DNA of 64,000 nucleotides, from contig SUUN01000001.1 of the NCBI GenBank assembly GCA_015062495.1, positions 19,881 to 83,880 on the forward strand, read 5' to 3'. A program made the position numbers and the translations under genes. Origin of the DNA: Alphaproteobacteria bacterium (GTDB lineage Bacteria > Pseudomonadota > Alphaproteobacteria > Rs-D84). The notes beneath the pieces are model-generated. The model did not search any database. It saw only the letters and a program-made list of their open reading frames with translations, and was not told the DNA's origin. Below, in pieces: positions 7,558 to 14,195 of this stretch (positions are counted from its first letter, which is position 1; each line of letters begins with the position of its first letter).

Positions 7558-7581
7558 ACCGCCCAGATGGGCGGTTTTTTT
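7558..7581 (+). terminator. Intrinsic terminator after grpE
   Basis: ACCGCCCA-GA-TGGGCGGT followed by a T-tract. Confidence 0.8.
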
Positions 7582-7632
7582 GTTTGCCAAAAAAATATAA
7601 ATTTTTGTATTTTTTTGTGATATAATACCAGT

Positions 7633-7806
7633 GACGCAGGCGACTGTGTTGGGGCGTAAGAACCTCGAAATTTGTGGTGTCCGTGGGGACAAAAAATACC
7701 TCCAACAAATTGGTTGGAGGGTCGCGAATATATTGAATAAGCGCGCTATTTTCCACAAGTTATAGTTCTTAACCTCCAACCGTCTGCTTTGTGACGGTTA
7801 TTTTTT
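7633..7806 (+). promoter_or_regulatory. Structured leader/attenuator copy L3 (compact type)
   Basis: Extended -10 TGA-TATAAT (7618-7626). Segments GTTGGGGCGTAAGAAC (7648), CCTCCAAC (7699), GGTTGGAGGGT (7712) and GTTCTTAACCTCCAACC (7765). Terminator AACCGTC..GACGGTT-ATTTTTT. Confidence 0.8.
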
Positions 7807-7825
7807 ACAAAAAGGGAATACAAAT

Positions 7826-8716
7826 ATGCGATTAACATTTGGGGTTTTAATGTCGCTGATGGTGGGGGCGGCGCATGCAAACACCGACCTGGCCGCGGCG
7901 ATTGAAAATGTCCGCACCGCATGCGGAAACATCAGTGTGGAATTATCGGACATGAAAAAAATGGCGGGTATAACAACCGCCGTCACCGGTGTTGGCACGG
8001 TCGCTGGTGGCGTTGCACTGGGGACAGGTATTGCCAAGGCGGGTGTTGATAAGGAAATAGAGGCCATGGAAAAATTACCTTTATTGACAATTGCAAATGA
8101 GAATGAGTTTGAAACCGCTGTGTTAAATTATGCCAAATCAATAAATCACTCGGTCAATACGGCAATAGGGCATGCTGAAAAGAAATCAAAACAACTGGGC
8201 AATGTTCGTACGGGAACATTGGCAACATCAACAGTTGCCAATATCGCGGGTGCGATTATGTCGGGTACAAATCGGGTAAAGGGTGATTTGAAACAACAAA
8301 TTGATGAATGCTTGGCATCGGTTAAAATATTATCAAATGTTCGTATGCAGGCGCGTATTTCCAAAACTGTCACGGATGCTGATTTGGCACGTGCGGAAAA
8401 TATCATTCATGCATGCGATGCATGGACCACGGTTGATATCAGTTCAATCAATAAACGTTCAACGGGCGCAACCGTATCATCGGGCATTGGTGCGGGGTTG
8501 GGGCTGGCCGGCACAATAACATCTGCATCGGCAAATTCAGACGGTGTTCGTGATGGTGATGCCGACAAAGAAAAGAAATTAAACGCCGCGGCAAATGTGT
8601 TGGCGGGGGGCACAACGGCGGCGGGATTGTCCGCCACAATATTTAACGCAACACAAATAAGTGCAATTAAACGTGCGGCAACGGTTGCCGATGAATGCGA
8701 GGGGGCGCTGAAGTAA
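7826..8716 (+). CDS. Secreted hypothetical protein with Gly/Ala-rich hydrophobic helices
   Basis: Signal peptide ending AHA. Several GxxxG-rich segments (TTAVTGVGTVAGGVALGTG; SSGIGAGLGLAGTIT). Four Cys. Confidence 0.8.
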   Translation: MRLTFGVLMSLMVGAAHANTDLAAAIENVRTACGNISVELSDMKKMAGITTAVTGVGTVAGGVALGTGIAKAGVDKEIEAMEKLPLLTIANENEFETAVLNYAKSINHSVNTAIGHAEKKSKQLGNVRTGTLATSTVANIAGAIMSGTNRVKGDLKQQIDECLASVKILSNVRMQARISKTVTDADLARAENIIHACDAWTTVDISSINKRSTGATVSSGIGAGLGLAGTITSASANSDGVRDGDADKEKKLNAAANVLAGGTTAAGLSATIFNATQISAIKRAATVADECEGALK

Positions 8717-8717
8717 A

Positions 8718-9425
8718 ATGAAAAAAATAGCTTTGTTTTTCTTAACTTTTATATTTTCAACTAATGTGTTTGCGAGTCAACAAACCAGTAACGAAATAGA
8801 ATTAAATACCCCTGTACGTTGGTATGCCAAGGCCTTGAGTAATGCCATATTCAAAATGGTTTATCAATCCAATCAGGATGCAGATGGGGCAGAACATGCC
8901 TCCGCAATCAGAAGTGAATTTTTGCAAACCTTGGATGTAAAAGATGGTGTTGTACTGATTAGCCCTGCTGAATTTATAGATAAATGTATGTCTGTATATC
9001 AAGCGTTTGATGCATCTACAAAATGTTCGAATGCGTTGATGGATGCTGTTCATTTTCATAACGAACTTGTCCAATCGTTTGCGAACGCAAATGCGCTGAA
9101 TGATAGAAATACAAAAATAGAGTGGCAATTCCGGGTTTGGTATAGTGCATTAAGCGTCGTTCTTGATTTGGATTTAGATCCGTTAGTGAATATATTTAGC
9201 GATTATATGAATACTGTTAACAATACAGCCTCGTTAAATGAGTGGTTGTCAGAGTGTAATAGAGCCATGCAATTTATTTCTTCAAGCAATACACCGTATC
9301 ATAAAGATGCCGTTGTTAGAATGCAATCTCATGACTTTTCGTGTCAAAAATATATAGAAGCGCTGGAGCAAAAATACAATGAATTTAGGGCGGCATATCA
9401 TACTGAAACAACGATAAAATTATAA
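8718..9425 (+). CDS. Secreted hypothetical protein
   Basis: MKKIALFFLTFIFSTNVFA signal peptide; starts 1 nt after the upstream stop codon. Confidence 0.75.
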   Translation: MKKIALFFLTFIFSTNVFASQQTSNEIELNTPVRWYAKALSNAIFKMVYQSNQDADGAEHASAIRSEFLQTLDVKDGVVLISPAEFIDKCMSVYQAFDASTKCSNALMDAVHFHNELVQSFANANALNDRNTKIEWQFRVWYSALSVVLDLDLDPLVNIFSDYMNTVNNTASLNEWLSECNRAMQFISSSNTPYHKDAVVRMQSHDFSCQKYIEALEQKYNEFRAAYHTETTIKL

Positions 9426-9437
9426 GGAGCTGAAAAA

Positions 9438-9731
9438 ATGAACAAAAATGATTTAGAAAATTTAGTGGAAGACTATGGTTATTTTGATGCGTTTCCCGGT
9501 GGTGCACCCGCGGGGCGTGCGTCACAGGCGGTGGAATATATGGCCGTCCTGCCCAAGCGGGGTAAAAAACAGGCCCTGATTGACGGGGCGGCACGTATTG
9601 GGGTTTTATTACAAACCGCACGCAAACGATTCCCGGACGGCAAAACACACGAATGTTTGACATTTCCAACGGCATATCAGCAGAAATTCAAACAACAAAT
9701 TCGTGATGTTGTAAAAGCACGTGAAAAATAA
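9438..9731 (+). CDS. Hypothetical protein (97 aa)
   Basis: AAGGAG RBS; followed by terminator CACCGCCCA-TC-TGGGCGGTG-TTTTT (9735-9760). Confidence 0.7.
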   Translation: MNKNDLENLVEDYGYFDAFPGGAPAGRASQAVEYMAVLPKRGKKQALIDGAARIGVLLQTARKRFPDGKTHECLTFPTAYQQKFKQQIRDVVKAREK

Positions 9732-9877
9732 CCCCACCGCCCATCTGGGCGGTGTTTTTTTGGGGGGGGGAGAAAGAAAATGTTGTAGCGCGACTTGACA
9801 AATATAAATGTTGTGTTATATATGTGTGATACGGAGAGTGAGCCGTATCATGAACAGCATAACCAAGAGGTGCTATC

Positions 9878-11428
9878 ATGACAAACGTAAAAACAAACCT
9901 TCCTCAAACATCCCTAGTCAGTAAGACGGCAAATATCATTTCTGAAACACGTCGTCCAGATGGTTCTTTGGCCACGCAGATATTAACAATCGGATTCGAC
10001 AAATATTTAATTCAATATGATTCCCAGGGTCAGGTTGTGTTCAAAGAAAAAATGGGCGAGTTATTCTTTAATGAAAAAGACATAACTTATAATAATGGTT
10101 GCGTTGCATCAATTACACGTCGTGATTATAGGGGCAACAGGGCCATTTCTCAATACGATGAAAATGGTCATATTATTGCGACTATAAATGCTAATAAAAA
10201 CGATATTGTAAACTTTGCGCCATCAGGATATGTCCGGTCTGTTATTAAACATTTGTCAGAATACGGTGATTTTGGCAAAACAACTGAAATCGAAGAAATC
10301 ACATTTAATGATTTCGGACATATAGTATCTTCTGCACACAAGGTGAAAATGACAGATTTGTTTGGCCCAGGACGTGATAAATGGATGACAACAGACACCA
10401 AGCAATATTATCCAAATGGGCAAATGGCCAGTCATATCACGTATAAGCAAAAAACAAAACGTACAGGCAGATGGACATCTGAAAATCAAGAAGACGAAGC
10501 GGCATCGTATATTTCATCAATCACTCAATATAGTGAAAAAGGCAAGTTGCAGGTGTCTGCACAACTGGGCGAATATGATGAAATAAACTTTAACGGCGAT
10601 AAAGTTGCGTGTATAACCAGACGTGTAAAGAAAGGTGACAGCCTGGAAACAATGTCCCAAACAACATATTATCCATCTGGAAATTTGTGCACAATAACAA
10701 CATACCAAGATGGCAGGGTTGTGTCTTCTGTGACTTATGATGAACAGGGCAAGCCACAAAGTAGTGCCCAGCAAGGAACAGAAAATTATCAGGATATATA
10801 TCAGAACGCACAGCAGACACGCCAAAACACACAGAACATTAAGTCTTTTGCCAAGATTGGCATGACGCCACAGCAGGCGGCCAGCATTTTGGGTGTGTCC
10901 TTAAGTGCAACCGAACAGGAAGTAAAAGTGGCATATCGTAAACTGTGTAAAATCTGGCATCCGGACAGAAACCAAGGAAATGAAGAGGTGGCTAAGCGCA
11001 AAATGCAACAAATCAATGAAGCGTACAGCGTTATGTCACAATACATCAGGAACCGCGGTGGTCAATCTCGTCCTGAACAGCCACAACAACCGCGACCTGA
11101 ACACATTAACCGAATGCAGCAGGCATGGAATAAACTACAACAGGCTATTCGTGATTATGACTATGCCGTAGATAGGTTAAAAGCCGCCACGGCAGAAAAA
11201 GAAAGAATCAGAAGCGAATATGTCAGAACAGCAGCAAATGATCAAAAGAAACGAAAATTGGAACAGCAATTAAGAAAGGCTGAGATTGCTTGGTCAGCGT
11301 GTGTTAACAACAAAATCCGGGCACAGGCATATAAAGATAAATGTGAACGTGAATATAATATGTTGCGCATGCAAAAATATACGAAAATGTATCAACAAAA
11401 ATGTTGTGAATATCAACGTGCTGCATAA
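9878..11428 (+). CDS. J-domain (DnaJ-like) protein with N-terminal YwqK/MORN-variant-like beta repeats and C-terminal coiled coil
   Basis: AASILGVSLSATEQEVKVAYRKLCKIWHPDRN..MQQINEAYSVM is a J-domain with HPD. Repeats such as QYYPNGQMAS and TYYPSGNLCT precede it. Confidence 0.85.
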   Translation: MTNVKTNLPQTSLVSKTANIISETRRPDGSLATQILTIGFDKYLIQYDSQGQVVFKEKMGELFFNEKDITYNNGCVASITRRDYRGNRAISQYDENGHIIATINANKNDIVNFAPSGYVRSVIKHLSEYGDFGKTTEIEEITFNDFGHIVSSAHKVKMTDLFGPGRDKWMTTDTKQYYPNGQMASHITYKQKTKRTGRWTSENQEDEAASYISSITQYSEKGKLQVSAQLGEYDEINFNGDKVACITRRVKKGDSLETMSQTTYYPSGNLCTITTYQDGRVVSSVTYDEQGKPQSSAQQGTENYQDIYQNAQQTRQNTQNIKSFAKIGMTPQQAASILGVSLSATEQEVKVAYRKLCKIWHPDRNQGNEEVAKRKMQQINEAYSVMSQYIRNRGGQSRPEQPQQPRPEHINRMQQAWNKLQQAIRDYDYAVDRLKAATAEKERIRSEYVRTAANDQKKRKLEQQLRKAEIAWSACVNNKIRAQAYKDKCEREYNMLRMQKYTKMYQQKCCEYQRAA

Positions 11429-11583
11429 TTTGACTGAATGTGTAAAAACTCGTCATTTTGGCGAGTTTTTTATATAAAAAAGTTCGTAAATGTGTGAAAC
11501 GGTGGTGCTTTTGACGTACGATTTACGAACCGATGAAAGTATTGGAAAACAAAGAAAACCACCAAAAGGTCGGTTGTTATTTG

Positions 11584-11782
11584 GGCAGCCCCAACATCGC
11601 TCCTCGATACGCAATAAATAAAATCAAAAAAATCTCCCTTGGTCGATTTTTTAAGATTTTTCTAATTGTGTATTCTCGTATTCGCCATGCGCAACTGGGG
11701 TTGCTCTGGCGTATCCGGTTGTGGCGTTATAGCAAAATAAAAAAATCGGGAAAACCCCGATTTGTTTATTTTGGCAGCCCCA
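11584..11782. repeat. Left direct repeat of the tRNA-Glu trailer unit
   Basis: Starts with GGCAGCCCCAACATCGC (same as 13373-13389). Ends with a 70-bp near-identical copy (11713-11782) of 13551-13620 that includes the tRNA-Glu 3' end TTGGCAGCCCCA. Confidence 0.9.
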
Positions 11783-11876
11783 GCTGGACGGCTTTCGAAC
11801 TTTACTGCTGCGCGACTATGACGAAATAGTCAGAAATATCAACGAACTTTCAGAATGGGTTGAAAATAACAAGTGA
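11772..11876 (+). pseudogene. Possible C-terminal remnant of a large serine recombinase overlapping the att core
   Basis: Frame reads WQPQLDGFRTLLLRDYDEIVRNINELSEWVENNK*, resembling the WxxxxDxxRT tails of tRNA-targeting serine integrases. Pattern recall only. Confidence 0.35.
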
Positions 11877-11891
11877 TAATTTTAGCTTGAT

Positions 11892-12224
11892 TTATACTGT
11901 CAGCAGAAAAATATATCCCACAGTAAGCAAACTTGGCCAAATGGCGTACCAAATAGCTTTGCATTGTTTTTGTCTGCTGACTTCAATTATTGACCTGTAT
12001 ATAAAAAACACGTCTAAGCACCCCAATAGTATCAGGCTTGTAAAAAAAGCGACCGCAGATGAGCGAATAAATCCGAAAGCCTCGGCTCCCCAATGGCATC
12101 CGCCCATTTCTGCGCAATTATAAAAACAAATATCAATAATTGTGTCTGCTATCATATACAGCAAAAACAGGTTCCATATCAAGAATAAGACAAATATTGT
12201 ATAAAATGCAAACTTTTTTATCAT
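11892..12224 (-). CDS. Small membrane protein, candidate immunity protein
   Basis: 110 aa with about 3 hydrophobic helices; begins 8 nt after the stop of the Tlde1-like gene. Confidence 0.65.
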   Translation of the reverse strand: MIKKFAFYTIFVLFLIWNLFLLYMIADTIIDICFYNCAEMGGCHWGAEAFGFIRSSAVAFFTSLILLGCLDVFFIYRSIIEVSRQKQCKAIWYAIWPSLLTVGYIFLLTV

Positions 12225-12232
12225 ATTATCAT

Positions 12233-13228
12233 CTAATATTTTACGTGCAGTATAACATCTTTTTTGTTTTGCTCAAACCATTTTATAAAATCACTTATTT
12301 CTGTTCGTAAGTCAATACAGCCGGCAGAGCCGAAAGCAACGCCGCCATGTATAGAAAATTTGTCTCTCCCGAATGTGTTAGTTTCTTTTGCAGGTTCTAA
12401 CCATACTCTGTGGTCTCCCCAGGAAGCATAACCGCCTGGCCATCCTGTTATTTTCCCTTTTGTAGAATATTTATCTCTATGTTGGGCATTTATTTGTCGT
12501 ATCACATATATTCCTTCTGGCAAAGGCCCTTTATCTTTCTCTTTTTGCATATCTTTGCCCTGATAACTTGGCATACCAGACATTGCGCCCCAATATCCTG
12601 TTCTTTTATCATTCGTATTTACCGTCAGGGCTACCCCATCAAATACTGCAACTTGATTTTTGTTTGTATTGACCGGATATTCAAATTTTGCGCCATGTGA
12701 TTCAAACTTCGTATTCAACACGCGTTCTGTTTCGTCACCCGATGATATGCGCCCGGTTATTGGTAAATTGTTATCGCGTTGAAAATCCTTAATCGCTGTA
12801 ATCAGTTCTGTGTTTGCGTATTTGTGAAATTGCCCGTCAGGCTCGCTACGCTCATTGGGCTTATAGTAATTCATTTTATACAGGTTCTTTTTCAGTTTTA
12901 TAACATCGTCTTCATTTGTTGCGTTATTGGCCGATACTGTGCCACTCAGGCTAAAATCTTTTTCTTTGGTTTTGTCTTCTTTTTTATCCTTATTTTCTGG
13001 TTTTTGTCCGTTATAGTGATATGGGCAAATACGCTCGTATGGTGCAACTTCGGTACCATCGGCACGTGTGTATCCGGATACTTGAATAATTCCGTCGCAT
13101 TGTTCGGTGGAATCACGACCATTATTTGCACCTTGTTGTCCTTTCAGTTTTGCGTATATGTTGGCCAGTGTGCCTGTGGCCTGAACCCAATCTTTGGTTC
13201 GCATAGATGTGTATTCTTTTAATGACAT
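12233..13228 (-). CDS. Peptidoglycan-binding domain + DUF2778/Tlde1 (L,D-transpeptidase fold) protein
   Basis: PG-binding segment DDVIKLKKNL..AIKDFQRDNNLPITG; C-terminal GPLPEGIY, WGDHRVWL and FSIHGG..GSAGCIDL. Start MSLKEY at 13228 with AAGGA RBS. Confidence 0.8.
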   Translation of the reverse strand: MSLKEYTSMRTKDWVQATGTLANIYAKLKGQQGANNGRDSTEQCDGIIQVSGYTRADGTEVAPYERICPYHYNGQKPENKDKKEDKTKEKDFSLSGTVSANNATNEDDVIKLKKNLYKMNYYKPNERSEPDGQFHKYANTELITAIKDFQRDNNLPITGRISSGDETERVLNTKFESHGAKFEYPVNTNKNQVAVFDGVALTVNTNDKRTGYWGAMSGMPSYQGKDMQKEKDKGPLPEGIYVIRQINAQHRDKYSTKGKITGWPGGYASWGDHRVWLEPAKETNTFGRDKFSIHGGVAFGSAGCIDLRTEISDFIKWFEQNKKDVILHVKY

Positions 13229-13372
13229 ATTTAATCCTTTGGTAAAAAAACACCCGCATATGCGGGCAATAAAAAAGACGACCAAATGTCGTCTGCTGAA
13301 TGTGTGTATTATACCATAATATACGAATTTTTTCAATAAAAAATCCGCCCAAATGGACGGAAAATCAGATTT

Positions 13373-13620
13373 GGCAGCCCCAACATCGCCCCTTGACAAC
13401 CAATAACCAAACCTAGACGCAAAAACTCTATTAACCATATCCGTTTTTGCAGGTTTGCTAATTGTTTGTCTGCGTATTGGTCATGCGCGCCACCTGTCAC
13501 GTAAACTTTGTTTACGTGTGGCACATAAATGTGCCTGGGCGCTCTGACCGATCCGGTTGTGGCGTTTTAGCAAAATAAAAAAATCGGGTAAAACCCGATT
13601 TGTTTATTTTGGCAGCCCCA
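13373..13620. repeat. Right direct repeat of the tRNA-Glu trailer unit
   Basis: Homologous to 11584-11782 and ends inside the tRNA-Glu 3' end. Includes the terminator AAATCGGG..CCCGATTT. Confidence 0.9.
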
Positions 13621-13685
13621 ACCGGATTCGAACCGGTGTTCTCGCCTTGAAAGGGCGGTGTCCTAGGCCTCTAGACGATGGGGCC
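13610..13685 (-). tRNA. tRNA-Glu(TTC)
   Basis: GGCCCCATCGTCTAGAGGCCTAGGACACCGCC-CTTTCAA-GGCGA...GGTTCGAATCC..GCCA. Confidence 0.95.
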
Positions 13686-13763
13686 AAAACTGCCATGTTC
13701 ATAACTGAACGCCGGCAAATTATACATGTTGTTTGCCGGCTTGTCAAGTGATTATCAATGATT

Positions 13764-14195
13764 TTATTCCGATGTGGTTTCGGAATCTGCCACAGGGGCA
13801 GCGGTGTCTTCGATTTGGGTAAAGATAATTTCTTTGCCGTCAGATGCAATCAATGTTAATTTGCCGTCGCCCAATTCATATGTTTCAACCGTTGGCATGA
13901 ACTCAAAGTATTCACGTTCGGTTTCCATGGCCTCAGCATCGCCCATCATCATTGTGGATGCAAAGCCTTCGAATTTAATGTTGTTGCCGTCCGCAGTATA
14001 ACCGCCGTTATAGCGATTTACAACGCCGCCAAATACGCGCATTTCAACCGGGTCAAATGACAATGTAATGTCAACGCCAGGCTGGGCGGATATAAAGTTT
14101 GCGCCCTTTAACAATTCGGGGTTCTGGGTGTCGTCCGCGCCACAGGCCGCCAATGCCAGGGCACATGCGCCAATTGCGAATAATTTGAATTTCAT
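13764..14195 (-). CDS. META domain lipoprotein (HslJ-like)
   Basis: Lipobox LAAC; GVVNRYNGGY, FASTMMMG and YELGDGKLTL match the META domain. Confidence 0.85.
   Translation of the reverse strand: MKFKLFAIGACALALAACGADDTQNPELLKGANFISAQPGVDITLSFDPVEMRVFGGVVNRYNGGYTADGNNIKFEGFASTMMMGDAEAMETEREYFEFMPTVETYELGDGKLTLIASDGKEIIFTQIEDTAAPVADSETTSE

Follow-up and report, generated by a model that had tools for sequence, protein, structure and literature searches.

Behind the tRNA-Glu(UUC) gene of a gut alphaproteobacterium with a 0.9-Mb genome (97.7% complete; its congeners are Candidatus Enterousia) lie a putative cell-wall toxin gene and a small membrane-protein gene, bracketed by repeats and by copies of the tRNA 3' end. 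This arrangement raises the question of what the repeats are, how the two genes came to lie between them and what might move them. The window that we analysed is the whole 64,000-nucleotide stretch of DNA containing the locus, which consists of the following features.

11473-11560, no strand assigned: ancestral tRNA-Glu trailer (the "flank", ~85 nt) containing the inverted repeat GTTCGTAAAT...ATTTACGAAC; left limit of the inserted array
11557-11593, no strand assigned: hairpin H1 (terminator-like) followed by core 1, the tRNA 3'-end copy GGGCAGCCCCA (11583-11593)
11594-11771, plus strand (transcript strand undecided): unitL; conserved domain 11600-11692; 79 bits with model R1
11713-11726: inverted copy of the tRNA-Glu 3' end in unitL (ATCCGGTTGTGGCG)
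11743-11763: bidirectional terminator hairpin H2 in unitL
11772-11782, no strand assigned: core 2 (TGGCAGCCCCA); left boundary of the toxin cassette
11783-11876, no strand assigned: the "tail", a conserved left-end module of toxin cassettes (P'-side arm)
11892-12224, minus strand: candidate immunity gene, 110 aa; three TM segments by hydropathy; conserved loop motif C..C.WG.E..G
12233-13228, minus strand: putative polymorphic toxin, 331 aa; N-terminal domain (1-100), PG_binding_1 (106-161), Tlde1/L,D-transpeptidase-fold domain (~195-331; His294, Cys304)
13251-13336, minus strand: toxin promoter (TTGAAA-17-TGnTATAAT at 13336-13308) and 5' leader
13327-13382, plus strand: 3'-end remnant (FNKKSAQMDGKSDLAAP; last ~15 codons) of a large serine recombinase (LSR) gene plus core 3; P arm; hairpin 13344-13361
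13372-13382: core 3, adjoining the LSR gene remnant
13383-13609, plus strand (transcript strand undecided): unitR; conserved domain 13389-13488; 117.7 bits with model R1
13551-13564: inverted tRNA-end copy in unitR
13581-13601: terminator hairpin H4 in unitR
13610-13685, minus strand: tRNA-Glu(UUC), whose last 11 nt are core 4; Rfam tRNA, 56 bits
13747-13719: promoter of tRNA-Glu(UUC)

The four tRNA-Glu 3'-end copies named in a preliminary description of this DNA were all located, with exact matches to the core at 11772, 13372 and 13610 and one mismatch at 11583. They stand above shuffle expectation: five matches to the core sequence occur in the window (the four cores and one unrelated match) against 1.05 expected, and none of 100 shuffles gave five. 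The cores delimit the two-gene cassette and two units of ~200 bp, whose homology, also claimed in that description, was confirmed. At their starts, a 42-nt block is 81% identical, with the first 17 nt (GGCAGCCCCAACATCGC) identical, and towards their ends an 86-nt block that includes the terminator (11703-11788 versus 13541-13626) is 91% identical.

The 331-aa protein is, by its Pfam score, family profile and predicted fold, a Tlde1-family enzyme. Both domains previously suggested for it score above their Pfam cut-offs: Tlde1_dom (PF10908, Tlde1/DUF2778; residues 216-324) at 35.5 bits against a gathering cut-off of 30.1, and PG_binding_1 at 31.5 bits against 23. Tlde1_dom reached 37.4 bits in a whole-genome Pfam scan, and YkuD scored 22.6 bits. 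A phmmer search of the PDB with the toxin sequence gave no match, and Tlde1a was reached by the family profile only: a profile built from 62 toxin homologues matched a single PDB protein, Tlde1a (7UMA; E = 1.3e-4), in an alignment that includes the F.IH...S.GCI motif. All 62 homologues retain H294 and C304, which align with FYIH...SHGCI of Tlde1a. As AF2 on the single sequence reached a pLDDT of only 31, we used an alignment-based model (pLDDT 78.8 overall, >85 for residues 90-331), for which the top three Foldseek matches were the Tlde1a structures 7UO3, 7UMA and 7UO8 (E = 1.4e-7, target TM 0.58-0.60), followed by YkuD and Ldt enzymes. The fold assignment first made from the sequence alone is upheld by each of these lines, from Pfam to the invariant His/Cys pair.

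The same N terminus and PG_binding_1 domain, at 85-93% identity, are joined to GH108 in P0025, P0026, P0028, P0033, P0036 and G066. This constant N-terminal module, the exchangeable C-terminal toxin domains and the immunity-like genes downstream place the protein in a polymorphic-toxin family whose Tlde1 domain can be exchanged for GH108. Residues 1-105 matched no Pfam family and contained no Phage_Mu_F domain, and no signal peptide was found on the toxin. MuF-Tlde1 fusions are present in congeners. We considered whether the N-terminal domain is itself MuF, as a C...DG.EV...CP.H pattern is shared in a MAFFT alignment, but rejected this at an hhalign probability of 0.5% (E = 0.12). [quoted passage not shown] The parallel drawn there with Tlde1 effectors holds for the fold and for the candidate immunity gene; Tlde1 proteins, however, are known from T6SSs, and this genome has no TssC. 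A VirB4-type ATPase locus (C2:232152-234584), type IVb pilus genes and phage-like particles are candidate routes of delivery. Taken together, the domain content suggests that the cargo protein is probably a peptidoglycan-targeting toxin. Its leader carries two terminator-like hairpins (13294-13276 and 13268-13251) ahead of the ribosome-binding site and is 82-91% conserved before the toxin genes of other loci and at C1:327817-327923 of the same genome.

The 110-aa partner is likely an immunity protein that protects the producer. It aligns with small TM proteins beside Tlde1 genes in G066 (two of them), G019, G056 and G046, and as many as three copies of this three-TM family can accompany a Tlde1 gene, G066 having three paralogues. 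Its three hydrophobic segments and this recurrence support the initial proposal of an adjacent candidate immunity gene. The gene itself is 98% identical in G066, L071, L072 and L080. Searches of Pfam and PADLOC gave no match for the protein, and PADLOC likewise had none for the toxin or for two of the three neighbouring genes. A DnaJ-MORN neighbour protein gave a sub-threshold CARF match (PADLOC, E 0.009).

The repeats had been described as direct repeats of 200-250 bp with att cores. They are not plain att scars; by their structure and distribution, they are copies of a genus-restricted, multicopy structured non-coding element with tRNA-matched arms. Of 151 genomes of the order, 58 have such units by model R1; all 58 belong to a single one of the 22 genera, and copy numbers run from 1 to 13 per genome. 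The units sit behind the genes for tRNA-Glu, tRNA-Ser and tRNA-Gln. Their direct and inverted end copies are specific to the tRNA, such that the closing stem of a unit is formed by one direct copy and one inverted copy of the 3' end of the tRNA beside it. UnitL is 93-97% identical to copies in G044, G021, G023, G054 and G006, and the fold of unitR has a z score of -6.6 on the plus strand and -7.05 on the minus strand. Across 24 base pairs, 94% of cells are paired and the covariation score is 0.293; shuffles gave 0.109, none of 500 reaching the observed score, and slid partners gave no more than 0.05. In an Rfam scan of 11300-13800 (E <= 10), nothing apart from the tRNA exceeded 25 bits or reached a gathering score, and the units neither matched RF02221 nor aligned with the copies of a leader RNA reported elsewhere in the window; we could place the element in no Rfam family, and our literature searches found no published description of it. 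The conserved fold could reflect a function of the units as RNA. An origin as a retro-element, with the arms as PBS-like sequences, is unsupported because RVT_1 is absent from the window's genome and from the unit-rich G002, G104 and G055. Unit-rich genomes such as G002 and G007 have no LSR gene, and the units may therefore move by another route.

Contigs with an identical META protein show four states of the locus: the window arrangement (contigs such as L062 and L067 are window-like), absence of exactly unitL plus the cassette, other cargo, and an intact recombinase element. L064, whose flanks have ~98-99% nucleotide identity, lacks precisely the core 1 to core 3 block, which between strains is either there or absent as a whole. 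G021 has unitL, hairpin, core and unitR with nothing between and no cassette, and in five congeners (G064, G049, G066, G019 and G001) the ancestral flank and terminator directly abut tRNA-Glu, as expected of empty sites. Unrelated cargo sequences occupy the same position in other strains and relatives. In the arrays of relatives, the flank appears two or three times and delimits cassettes. The tail is found at 92-97% identity in L071, L072 (three copies), L076 and L078, and at 89.5% in G056; most of these copies come directly after flank-hairpin-core. A plasmid search gave nothing beyond tRNA matches. The locus is hence not invariant, and the successive integrations at tRNA-Glu first proposed for it are supported in the form of an insertion hot spot at the tRNA 3' end.

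The enzyme associated with this hot spot is an LSR. Over all of its 56 nt, the window segment 13327-13382 matches the 3' end of an intact 526-aa LSR gene in the sister-strain contig L065 at 100% identity, and the intact LSR adjoins the tRNA in L065, L066 and L068. By tblastn, the remnant is 89% identical over 19 aa to the recombinase of G056, which has Resolvase, Recombinase and Zn_ribbon_recom domains. Orthologues (55-93% identity) occur in 9 of 121 genomes of the genus, and the LSR gene overlaps tRNA-Glu in all five of them for which the tRNA-Glu position was available (G056, G023, G073, G022 and G057). These elements insert at one core, carry core repeats at both ends, with a second core marking the element ends in G073, G089, G095 and G116, and have empty sites in relatives. 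On the alignments, the LSR gene reads through its own crossover core into the tRNA gene, and its stump persists as a cassette boundary. Neither the window nor its 97.7%-complete genome holds an intact recombinase gene with Resolvase, Recombinase and Zn-ribbon domains, only the ~15-codon remnant, which extends to the whole genome the original observation that the window has no intact integrase. That remnant lies at the right junction and in another frame than the WQPQLDGFRT... frame at the left junction, which had been likened to a serine-integrase tail but is not a recombinase tail. The WQPQ frame, at 11772, is open for 34 codons without a start codon. We also rejected it as the recombinase C terminus of a circular form: in intact LSRs the core is translated in the LAAP frame, with only a 12-aa extension into the tail.

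The best explanation, to which we give a probability of roughly 0.7, is that this is a recombinase-less toxin cassette of LSR-family origin in an array at tRNA-Glu, with structured flanking units. Positions 11594-13620 would be an array of three small recombinase-less cassettes at the tRNA-Glu(UUC) 3' end, the middle one (11783-13382) being a decayed member of an LSR-moved element family. In intact elements the LSR gene runs into the tRNA, which puts the crossover core at the gene end; the window retains the last ~15 LSR codons beside core 3 and the conserved tail arm beside core 2. With both halves of an attP-like site kept, the cassette could therefore be moved by an LSR in trans. The toxin and its partner would be transcribed from the cassette's own promoter and then through the leader with its two terminator hairpins, and the structured units would settle behind tRNA genes. 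LSR-catalysed movement of the window's own cassette, which we infer from these sites, has several points against it. The absence of an LSR gene from the genome counts against movement today. The arms beside the cores differ among cassettes (unit-type, tail-type and others), and we found no half-site motif common to them, a strange situation if one LSR served them all. By the textbook, serine integrases do not stack elements in tandem, since attL and attR differ from attB. Gain and loss could also proceed through RecA, at repeats of 17-150 bp (core plus ACATCGC; flank-hairpin-core).

One could suppose that the array owes both its assembly and its reshuffling to homologous recombination of the ordinary kind between trailer modules (flank, hairpin, core and unit), with no site-specific recombinase, and that the LSR remnant is a bystander scar. 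The repeats, with 91% identity over 86 nt and the first 17 nt of the units identical, would suffice for RecA, and flank-hairpin-core modules of ~150 bp occur two or three times per array; the difference between L064 and the window falls exactly between two such repeats, and the genome has no LSR of its own. We nevertheless consider this account unlikely, given that intact LSR genes overlap the same tRNA in several species and sister strains, that the elements in G073, G089, G095 and G116 end in a second core of 9-11 bp with no longer homology, that the cassette retains 45 nt of LSR gene end identical to an active-looking copy, and that unrelated cargo lies at the same position. The units, in turn, might primarily be small-RNA genes and not recombination sites, producing tRNA-like RNAs with an acceptor-type closing stem behind tRNA genes, their proximity to the toxin being coincidental or regulatory. 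This we regard as doubtful, though a serious contender. It accords with a conserved multi-helix fold with compensatory changes (z of -6.6 and -7.05), with an intrinsic terminator at the end of each unit on either strand, with the closing stem of G009, which diverges from the tRNA sequence in a compensatory manner, and with the absence of an Rfam match for the units. However, a promoter scan and reading by eye gave no convincing promoter on either strand, G-U versus A-C counts favour neither strand, and the same covariation is expected of folded single-stranded DNA. The units are also patchily distributed (about half of the sampled genus genomes, copy number 1-13) and 93-97% identical between species, compared with 76-87% for the neighbouring META gene, a pattern that resembles a mobile element rather than a housekeeping RNA.

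As to the cargo, the 331-aa protein might serve the cell's own wall remodelling or be a phage-type lysin instead of an interbacterial toxin, with the membrane protein as a holin-like or anchoring partner. L,D-transpeptidase-fold and PG-binding proteins are common in housekeeping, Foldseek also matches YkuD and Ldt, the genome has no T6SS, and the same domain is fused to a phage MuF module in relatives. Yet the gene is strain-variable and on a mobile cassette, GH108 replaces the C-terminal domain behind a constant N terminus, the toxin genes are followed by several small TM paralogues in a row, in the manner of orphan immunity genes, and the closest sequence and fold matches are to the Tlde1 effector, not to housekeeping Ldt enzymes, all of which makes own use improbable. 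More speculative, and in our estimation a long shot, is the idea that the units are targeting modules of an undescribed recombination system: a folded RNA or single-stranded DNA scaffold whose arms, being both strands of the chosen tRNA's 3' end, would specify or rebuild the landing site that serine recombinases use to stack or swap one- or two-gene cassettes. If true, gut bacteria with genomes below 1 Mb would have a platform for gene exchange that resembles an integron and can be redirected from one tRNA gene to another.

On our preferred reading, that of a recombinase-less toxin cassette in an array of LSR-family origin, the locus shares traits with several known systems. The T6SS effector Tlde1a and its partner Tldi1a, from SPI-6 of Salmonella Typhimurium, have an L,D-transpeptidase-fold toxin solved in PDB 7UMA, 7UO3 and 7UO8 (PMC9638812), and the window pair is like them in its above-cut-off Tlde1_dom, best fold match, F.IH...S.GCI His/Cys motif and adjacent candidate immunity gene. 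Sequence identity to Tlde1a is, however, only ~23-24%, and the host genome has no T6SS sheath gene. The window toxin has extra N-terminal and PG_binding_1 domains, whereas a PG-binding domain is described as unnecessary for Tlde1a (PMC9638812). The partner, a three-TM protein without a Pfam or PADLOC match, also differs from the sec-signal-bearing Tldi1a. Polymorphic toxin systems, including MuF-type phage toxins (PMC3482391, PMC5576092), likewise offer a parallel: a constant N terminus with exchangeable Tlde1 and GH108 domains, immunity-like genes directly downstream and extra orphan paralogues in relatives. Unlike MuF-type toxins, the window toxin has an N terminus that matches neither MuF nor any Pfam family.

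In SCC-type islands, core direct repeats bound the elements, tandem stacking occurs and recombinase-less elements are possibly moved in trans. Composite islands of SCCmec and enterococcal cassette chromosomes use Ccr large serine recombinases at the rlmH 3' end (PMC6222049). The present locus resembles SCCmec in LSR insertion at a fixed site, the 3' end of a conserved gene, and in its core repeats, tandem stacking and recombinase-less members. It departs from SCCmec in its target, a tRNA gene into which the recombinase ORF crosses through the core, in cassettes of 0.2-2 kb with one or two genes, in the structured non-coding units of the array, and in its host, an alphaproteobacterium with a genome below 1 Mb. 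CIMEs (integrase-less tRNA-targeting elements) and integron arrays are built from short cassettes with repeated recombination sites and no recombinase of their own, accreting at one site. Here too, short recombinase-less cassettes accrete at one site, with hairpin-forming boundary elements, but the associated enzyme is a serine and not a tyrosine recombinase, and the boundary elements carry the 3' end of the adjacent tRNA in direct and in inverted orientation. We rejected an integron reading proper, as no attC R/L box pattern was seen by eye and the recombinase beside the arrays is a serine enzyme.

Collectively, these data suggest that an uncultured gut bacterium with a 0.9-Mb genome still exchanges weapon and defence genes, and that this exchange would run through a single fixed position behind a tRNA gene, at which tiny cassettes appear to be stacked, lost and replaced between strains. 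The repeats at this site are a structured, mobile-looking element with tRNA-matched arms, and the LSR, with its short, well-defined sites, is a candidate recombination tool. The cargo would place a Tlde1-type cell-wall toxin in a lineage without a T6SS, together with a new three-TM partner family and an N-terminal putative trafficking domain.

The host genome assembles into three contigs totalling 0.90 Mb (97.7% complete; the window is C1:19881-83880), with 44.9% G+C, 44 tRNA genes and a permuted tmRNA. Both ARAGORN and Rfam identify a tRNA-Glu(UUC) gene in the window, the last 11 nt of which read TGGCAGCCCCA on the plus strand. The preliminary description had reported four copies of this 3' end (cores 1 to 4), and all four are present: one within the tRNA itself at 13610, two further exact copies at 13372 and 11772, and one at 11583 that carries a single mismatch. 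Matches to the core sequence in the window number five (one unrelated), compared with 1.05 expected, and none of 100 shuffles reached five. On the plus strand, an A-run, a hairpin and a T-run come before each core. The array is made up as follows, from left to right on the plus strand.

Array segments and annotated features of the tRNA-Glu locus
Segment 1: ancestral flank (11473-11560), hairpin H1, core 1
Segment 2: unitL, hairpin H2, core 2
Segment 3: tail (11783-11876), immunity gene, toxin gene, leader and promoter, stump of a large serine recombinase gene (P arm), core 3
Segment 4: unitR, hairpin H4, core 4 (the tRNA)
11584-11771 and 13373-13609: homologous units
11892-12224, minus strand: 110-aa immunity candidate
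12233-13228, minus strand: 331-aa predicted toxin
13229-13336, minus strand: toxin promoter and leader, with near-consensus TTGAAA-17-TGnTATAAT, then two terminator-like hairpins, then a ribosome-binding site
13610-13685, minus strand: tRNA-Glu(UUC)

The homology of the two flanking units likewise stands: their first 17 nt are identical, and two blocks align, one of 42 nt (81% identity) and one of 86 nt (91%) that takes in the terminator.

Comparison with congeners (other genomes of Candidatus Enterousia) showed the tRNA to be a site of insertion. In five of them (G064, G049, G066, G019 and G001), what directly precedes tRNA-Glu is collinear with the 110 nt adjoining core 1 on its left (11473-11582), so 11594-13620 is an insertion relative to their state; the inserted segment has a G+C content of 38.5%, versus 45.1% for the window. 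Another congener, G021, has unitL, hairpin, core and unitR without the cassette. To compare sister strains, we collected contigs encoding a META protein identical to that of the window, and these show four locus states.

Locus states among contigs with an identical META protein
State 1: window arrangement (L062, L067 and 13 similar places)
State 2: block from core 1 to core 3 (unitL and toxin cassette) exactly missing (L064; flanks ~98-99% identical)
State 3: different cargo and a tandem pair of units (L063, L069)
State 4: intact recombinase gene (526 aa) directly next to the tRNA; cargo of Eco57I-like methylase and T5orf172/helicase genes (L065, L066, L068)

In L064, unitR comes immediately after H1 and its core. 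Empty sites and alternative cargo, which the preliminary description had proposed to look for across strains, thus both exist. The genes carried in state 4, one for an Eco57I-like N6-methylase/restriction protein and one for a T5orf172/ResIII helicase, look like defence cargo. L064 also lacks 7564-11514, a block of two small ORFs (235 and 97 aa) and a 516-aa DnaJ-MORN protein; here the end of the upstream gene meets the second half of the flank, making this a second strain-level indel, with no tRNA cores at its bounds. The flank (11473-11560) is itself an ~85-nt element with an inverted repeat (GTTCGTAAAT...ATTTACGAAC), found two to three times per tRNA-Glu array, between cassettes, in relatives (L026, L031, L021, L020, L024, L015, L055, L025 and L013), where it resembles an independent type of cassette boundary.

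A putative recombinase for this site is encoded by relatives. In G056, a 525-aa ORF with the domains Resolvase, Recombinase and Zn_ribbon_recom terminates within the tRNA (...DLAAPTGFEPVFSP). Of 121 genomes in the genus, 9 have orthologues of this putative large serine recombinase, with 55-93% identity, and the gene overlaps the tRNA in all five with a known tRNA-Glu position (G056, G023, G073, G022 and G057). At the far end of the element, G073, G089, G095 and G116 have a terminator hairpin and TGGCAGCCC(A/C)A. A search of the window's genome found no such gene; intact copies occur in relatives and in L065, L066 and L068. What the window holds is a stump at the right junction of the cassette: 13327-13382 encodes FNKKSAQMDGKSDLAAP, and the intact L065 gene ends in the same 56 nt (100% identity), with homology breaking off abruptly to their left. 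The serine-integrase tail previously read at the left junction was not borne out. The 94 nt right of core 2 (the tail) are instead a separate conserved module, 92-97% identical across species, which follows flank, hairpin and core in most copies, and opens each toxin cassette; L072 has a tandem run of three. The module's 34-codon frame lacks a start codon and differs from the recombinase frame, in which the ORF would reach only 12 residues into the tail.

The unit body is not tied to tRNA-Glu. Elsewhere in the same genome it follows tRNA-Ser(GGA) and, where C1 begins, a truncated tRNA, and congeners have it after Ser(CGA), Ser(UGA), Gln(CUG) and Gln(UUG) genes. The Ser copy (C1:213300-213592) has ~52-bp direct repeats (terminator and tRNA 3' end) on either side, differing at one base, and the copy at C1:100-350 has identical terminator hairpins on both sides. 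Most copies are flanked on both sides by a terminator hairpin and the first 9-15 nt of the adjoining tRNA's 3' end, the distal copy being lost in a few. The tRNA-proximal end of the body carries a 13- to 24-nt inverted copy of the same tRNA's end, and in most units direct and inverted copies pair as an 11- to 13-bp closing stem; in G009, both arms diverge from the tRNA sequence in a compensatory manner. RNAalifold gave three helices with many double changes. In the 5' domain (24 pairs, 94% paired), the covariation score was 0.293. Shuffles scored 0.109, none of 500 reaching the observed value, and slid partners gave no more than 0.05. Folding of the single sequence yielded z-scores of -6.6 (plus strand) and -7.05 (minus strand). 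No Rfam family matches the units, and a leader RNA present elsewhere in the window was rejected as the same element. Of 151 genomes of the order screened with a covariance model, 58 contain units. All 58 belong to the host's genus, one of 22, and carry 1-13 copies each (four in the host). Copies are 93-97% identical between species, versus 76-87% for META genes. With their uneven spread among genomes, differing copy number and higher-than-expected conservation, the units look like mobile, non-autonomous elements, which may act as RNA or as folded DNA. The unit-rich genomes G002 and G007 lack large serine recombinase genes, and the host genome, G002, G104 and G055 lack reverse transcriptase. 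Reverse transcriptase ORFs of ~350 aa occur in four of eight Enterousia genomes checked (L058-L061, in G205, G007, G115 and G046), with no correlation between presence and unit copy number across the eight.

The preliminary domain calls for the toxin were correct: Tlde1_dom at 35.5 bits and PG_binding_1 at 31.5 bits exceed their respective cut-offs of 30.1 and 23. Against 177,635 PDB sequences, a 62-homologue profile matched Tlde1a only (7UMA, 7UO8; E = 1.3e-4), aligning the motifs FDG, IPEG.Y, WG..R..LE and F.IH...S.GCI, and His294 and Cys304 are invariant in the 62 homologues. An alignment-based AF2 model (pLDDT >85 from residue 90 on) matched three Tlde1a entries best (E = 1.4e-7; target TM, 0.58-0.60), then YkuD and Ldt enzymes. 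Tlde1a is a type VI secretion effector of the L,D-carboxypeptidase/transpeptidase type with a catalytic cysteine (PMC9638812). The 331-aa protein is a putative toxin. Among its best 120 homologues, those with a name are annotated as uncultured Alphaproteobacteria, and the majority have none; public records from sheep colon and yak caecum that contain its close relatives bear the titles "MAG: Candidatus Enterousia sp." or "Alphaproteobacteria bacterium". Elsewhere, the first ~190 residues (N-terminal domain and PG_binding_1) are joined, at 85-93% identity, to a GH108 muramidase replacing Tlde1, and other congeners have fusions of Tlde1 to a phage MuF module; such exchangeable domains are the architecture of polymorphic toxins (PMC3482391, PMC5576092). 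A family search with the N-terminus gave no match, and kinship with MuF was rejected when a profile-profile test failed.

The two-hairpin toxin leader may be an attenuator. It is 82-91% conserved before toxin genes in nine other Enterousia loci, and an 87% copy lies directly after tRNA-His in the same genome (C1:327817-327923), where the N-terminus of the downstream ORF (MQTPKFLQELISSPEYGDKNSETYKRA...) matches that of MuF-Tlde1 toxins in congeners. The 110-aa neighbor of the toxin, a putative immunity protein, has three hydrophobic segments and 98% identical copies in four other assemblies. Small three-TM proteins with a common loop motif, C..C.WG.E..G, are encoded downstream of Tlde1 genes in G066 (three paralogues), G019, G056 and G046. 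The toxin is presumably exported. TssC is absent from the host genome, which does encode a VirB4-family ATPase with a VirB3-like neighbor, a possible export route; at this locus (C2:232152-234877), the 810-aa ATPase gene adjoins that of the 98-aa VirB3-like protein, with no further obvious type IV secretion genes alongside.

The middle segment of the array retains both arms of an attP-like site, and near-identical strains differ in whether they have the entire stretch between cores 1 and 3. The main rival explanation is RecA-dependent exchange between the repeated modules, which may also account for this polymorphism. Together, the anatomy of the array and the core 1-core 3 polymorphism fit a model in which small elements would accrete at the tRNA 3' end, with the recombinase gene having been lost. 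Such accretion at tRNA-Glu would resemble the stacking of SCC and pseudo-SCC elements at rlmH (PMC6222049).
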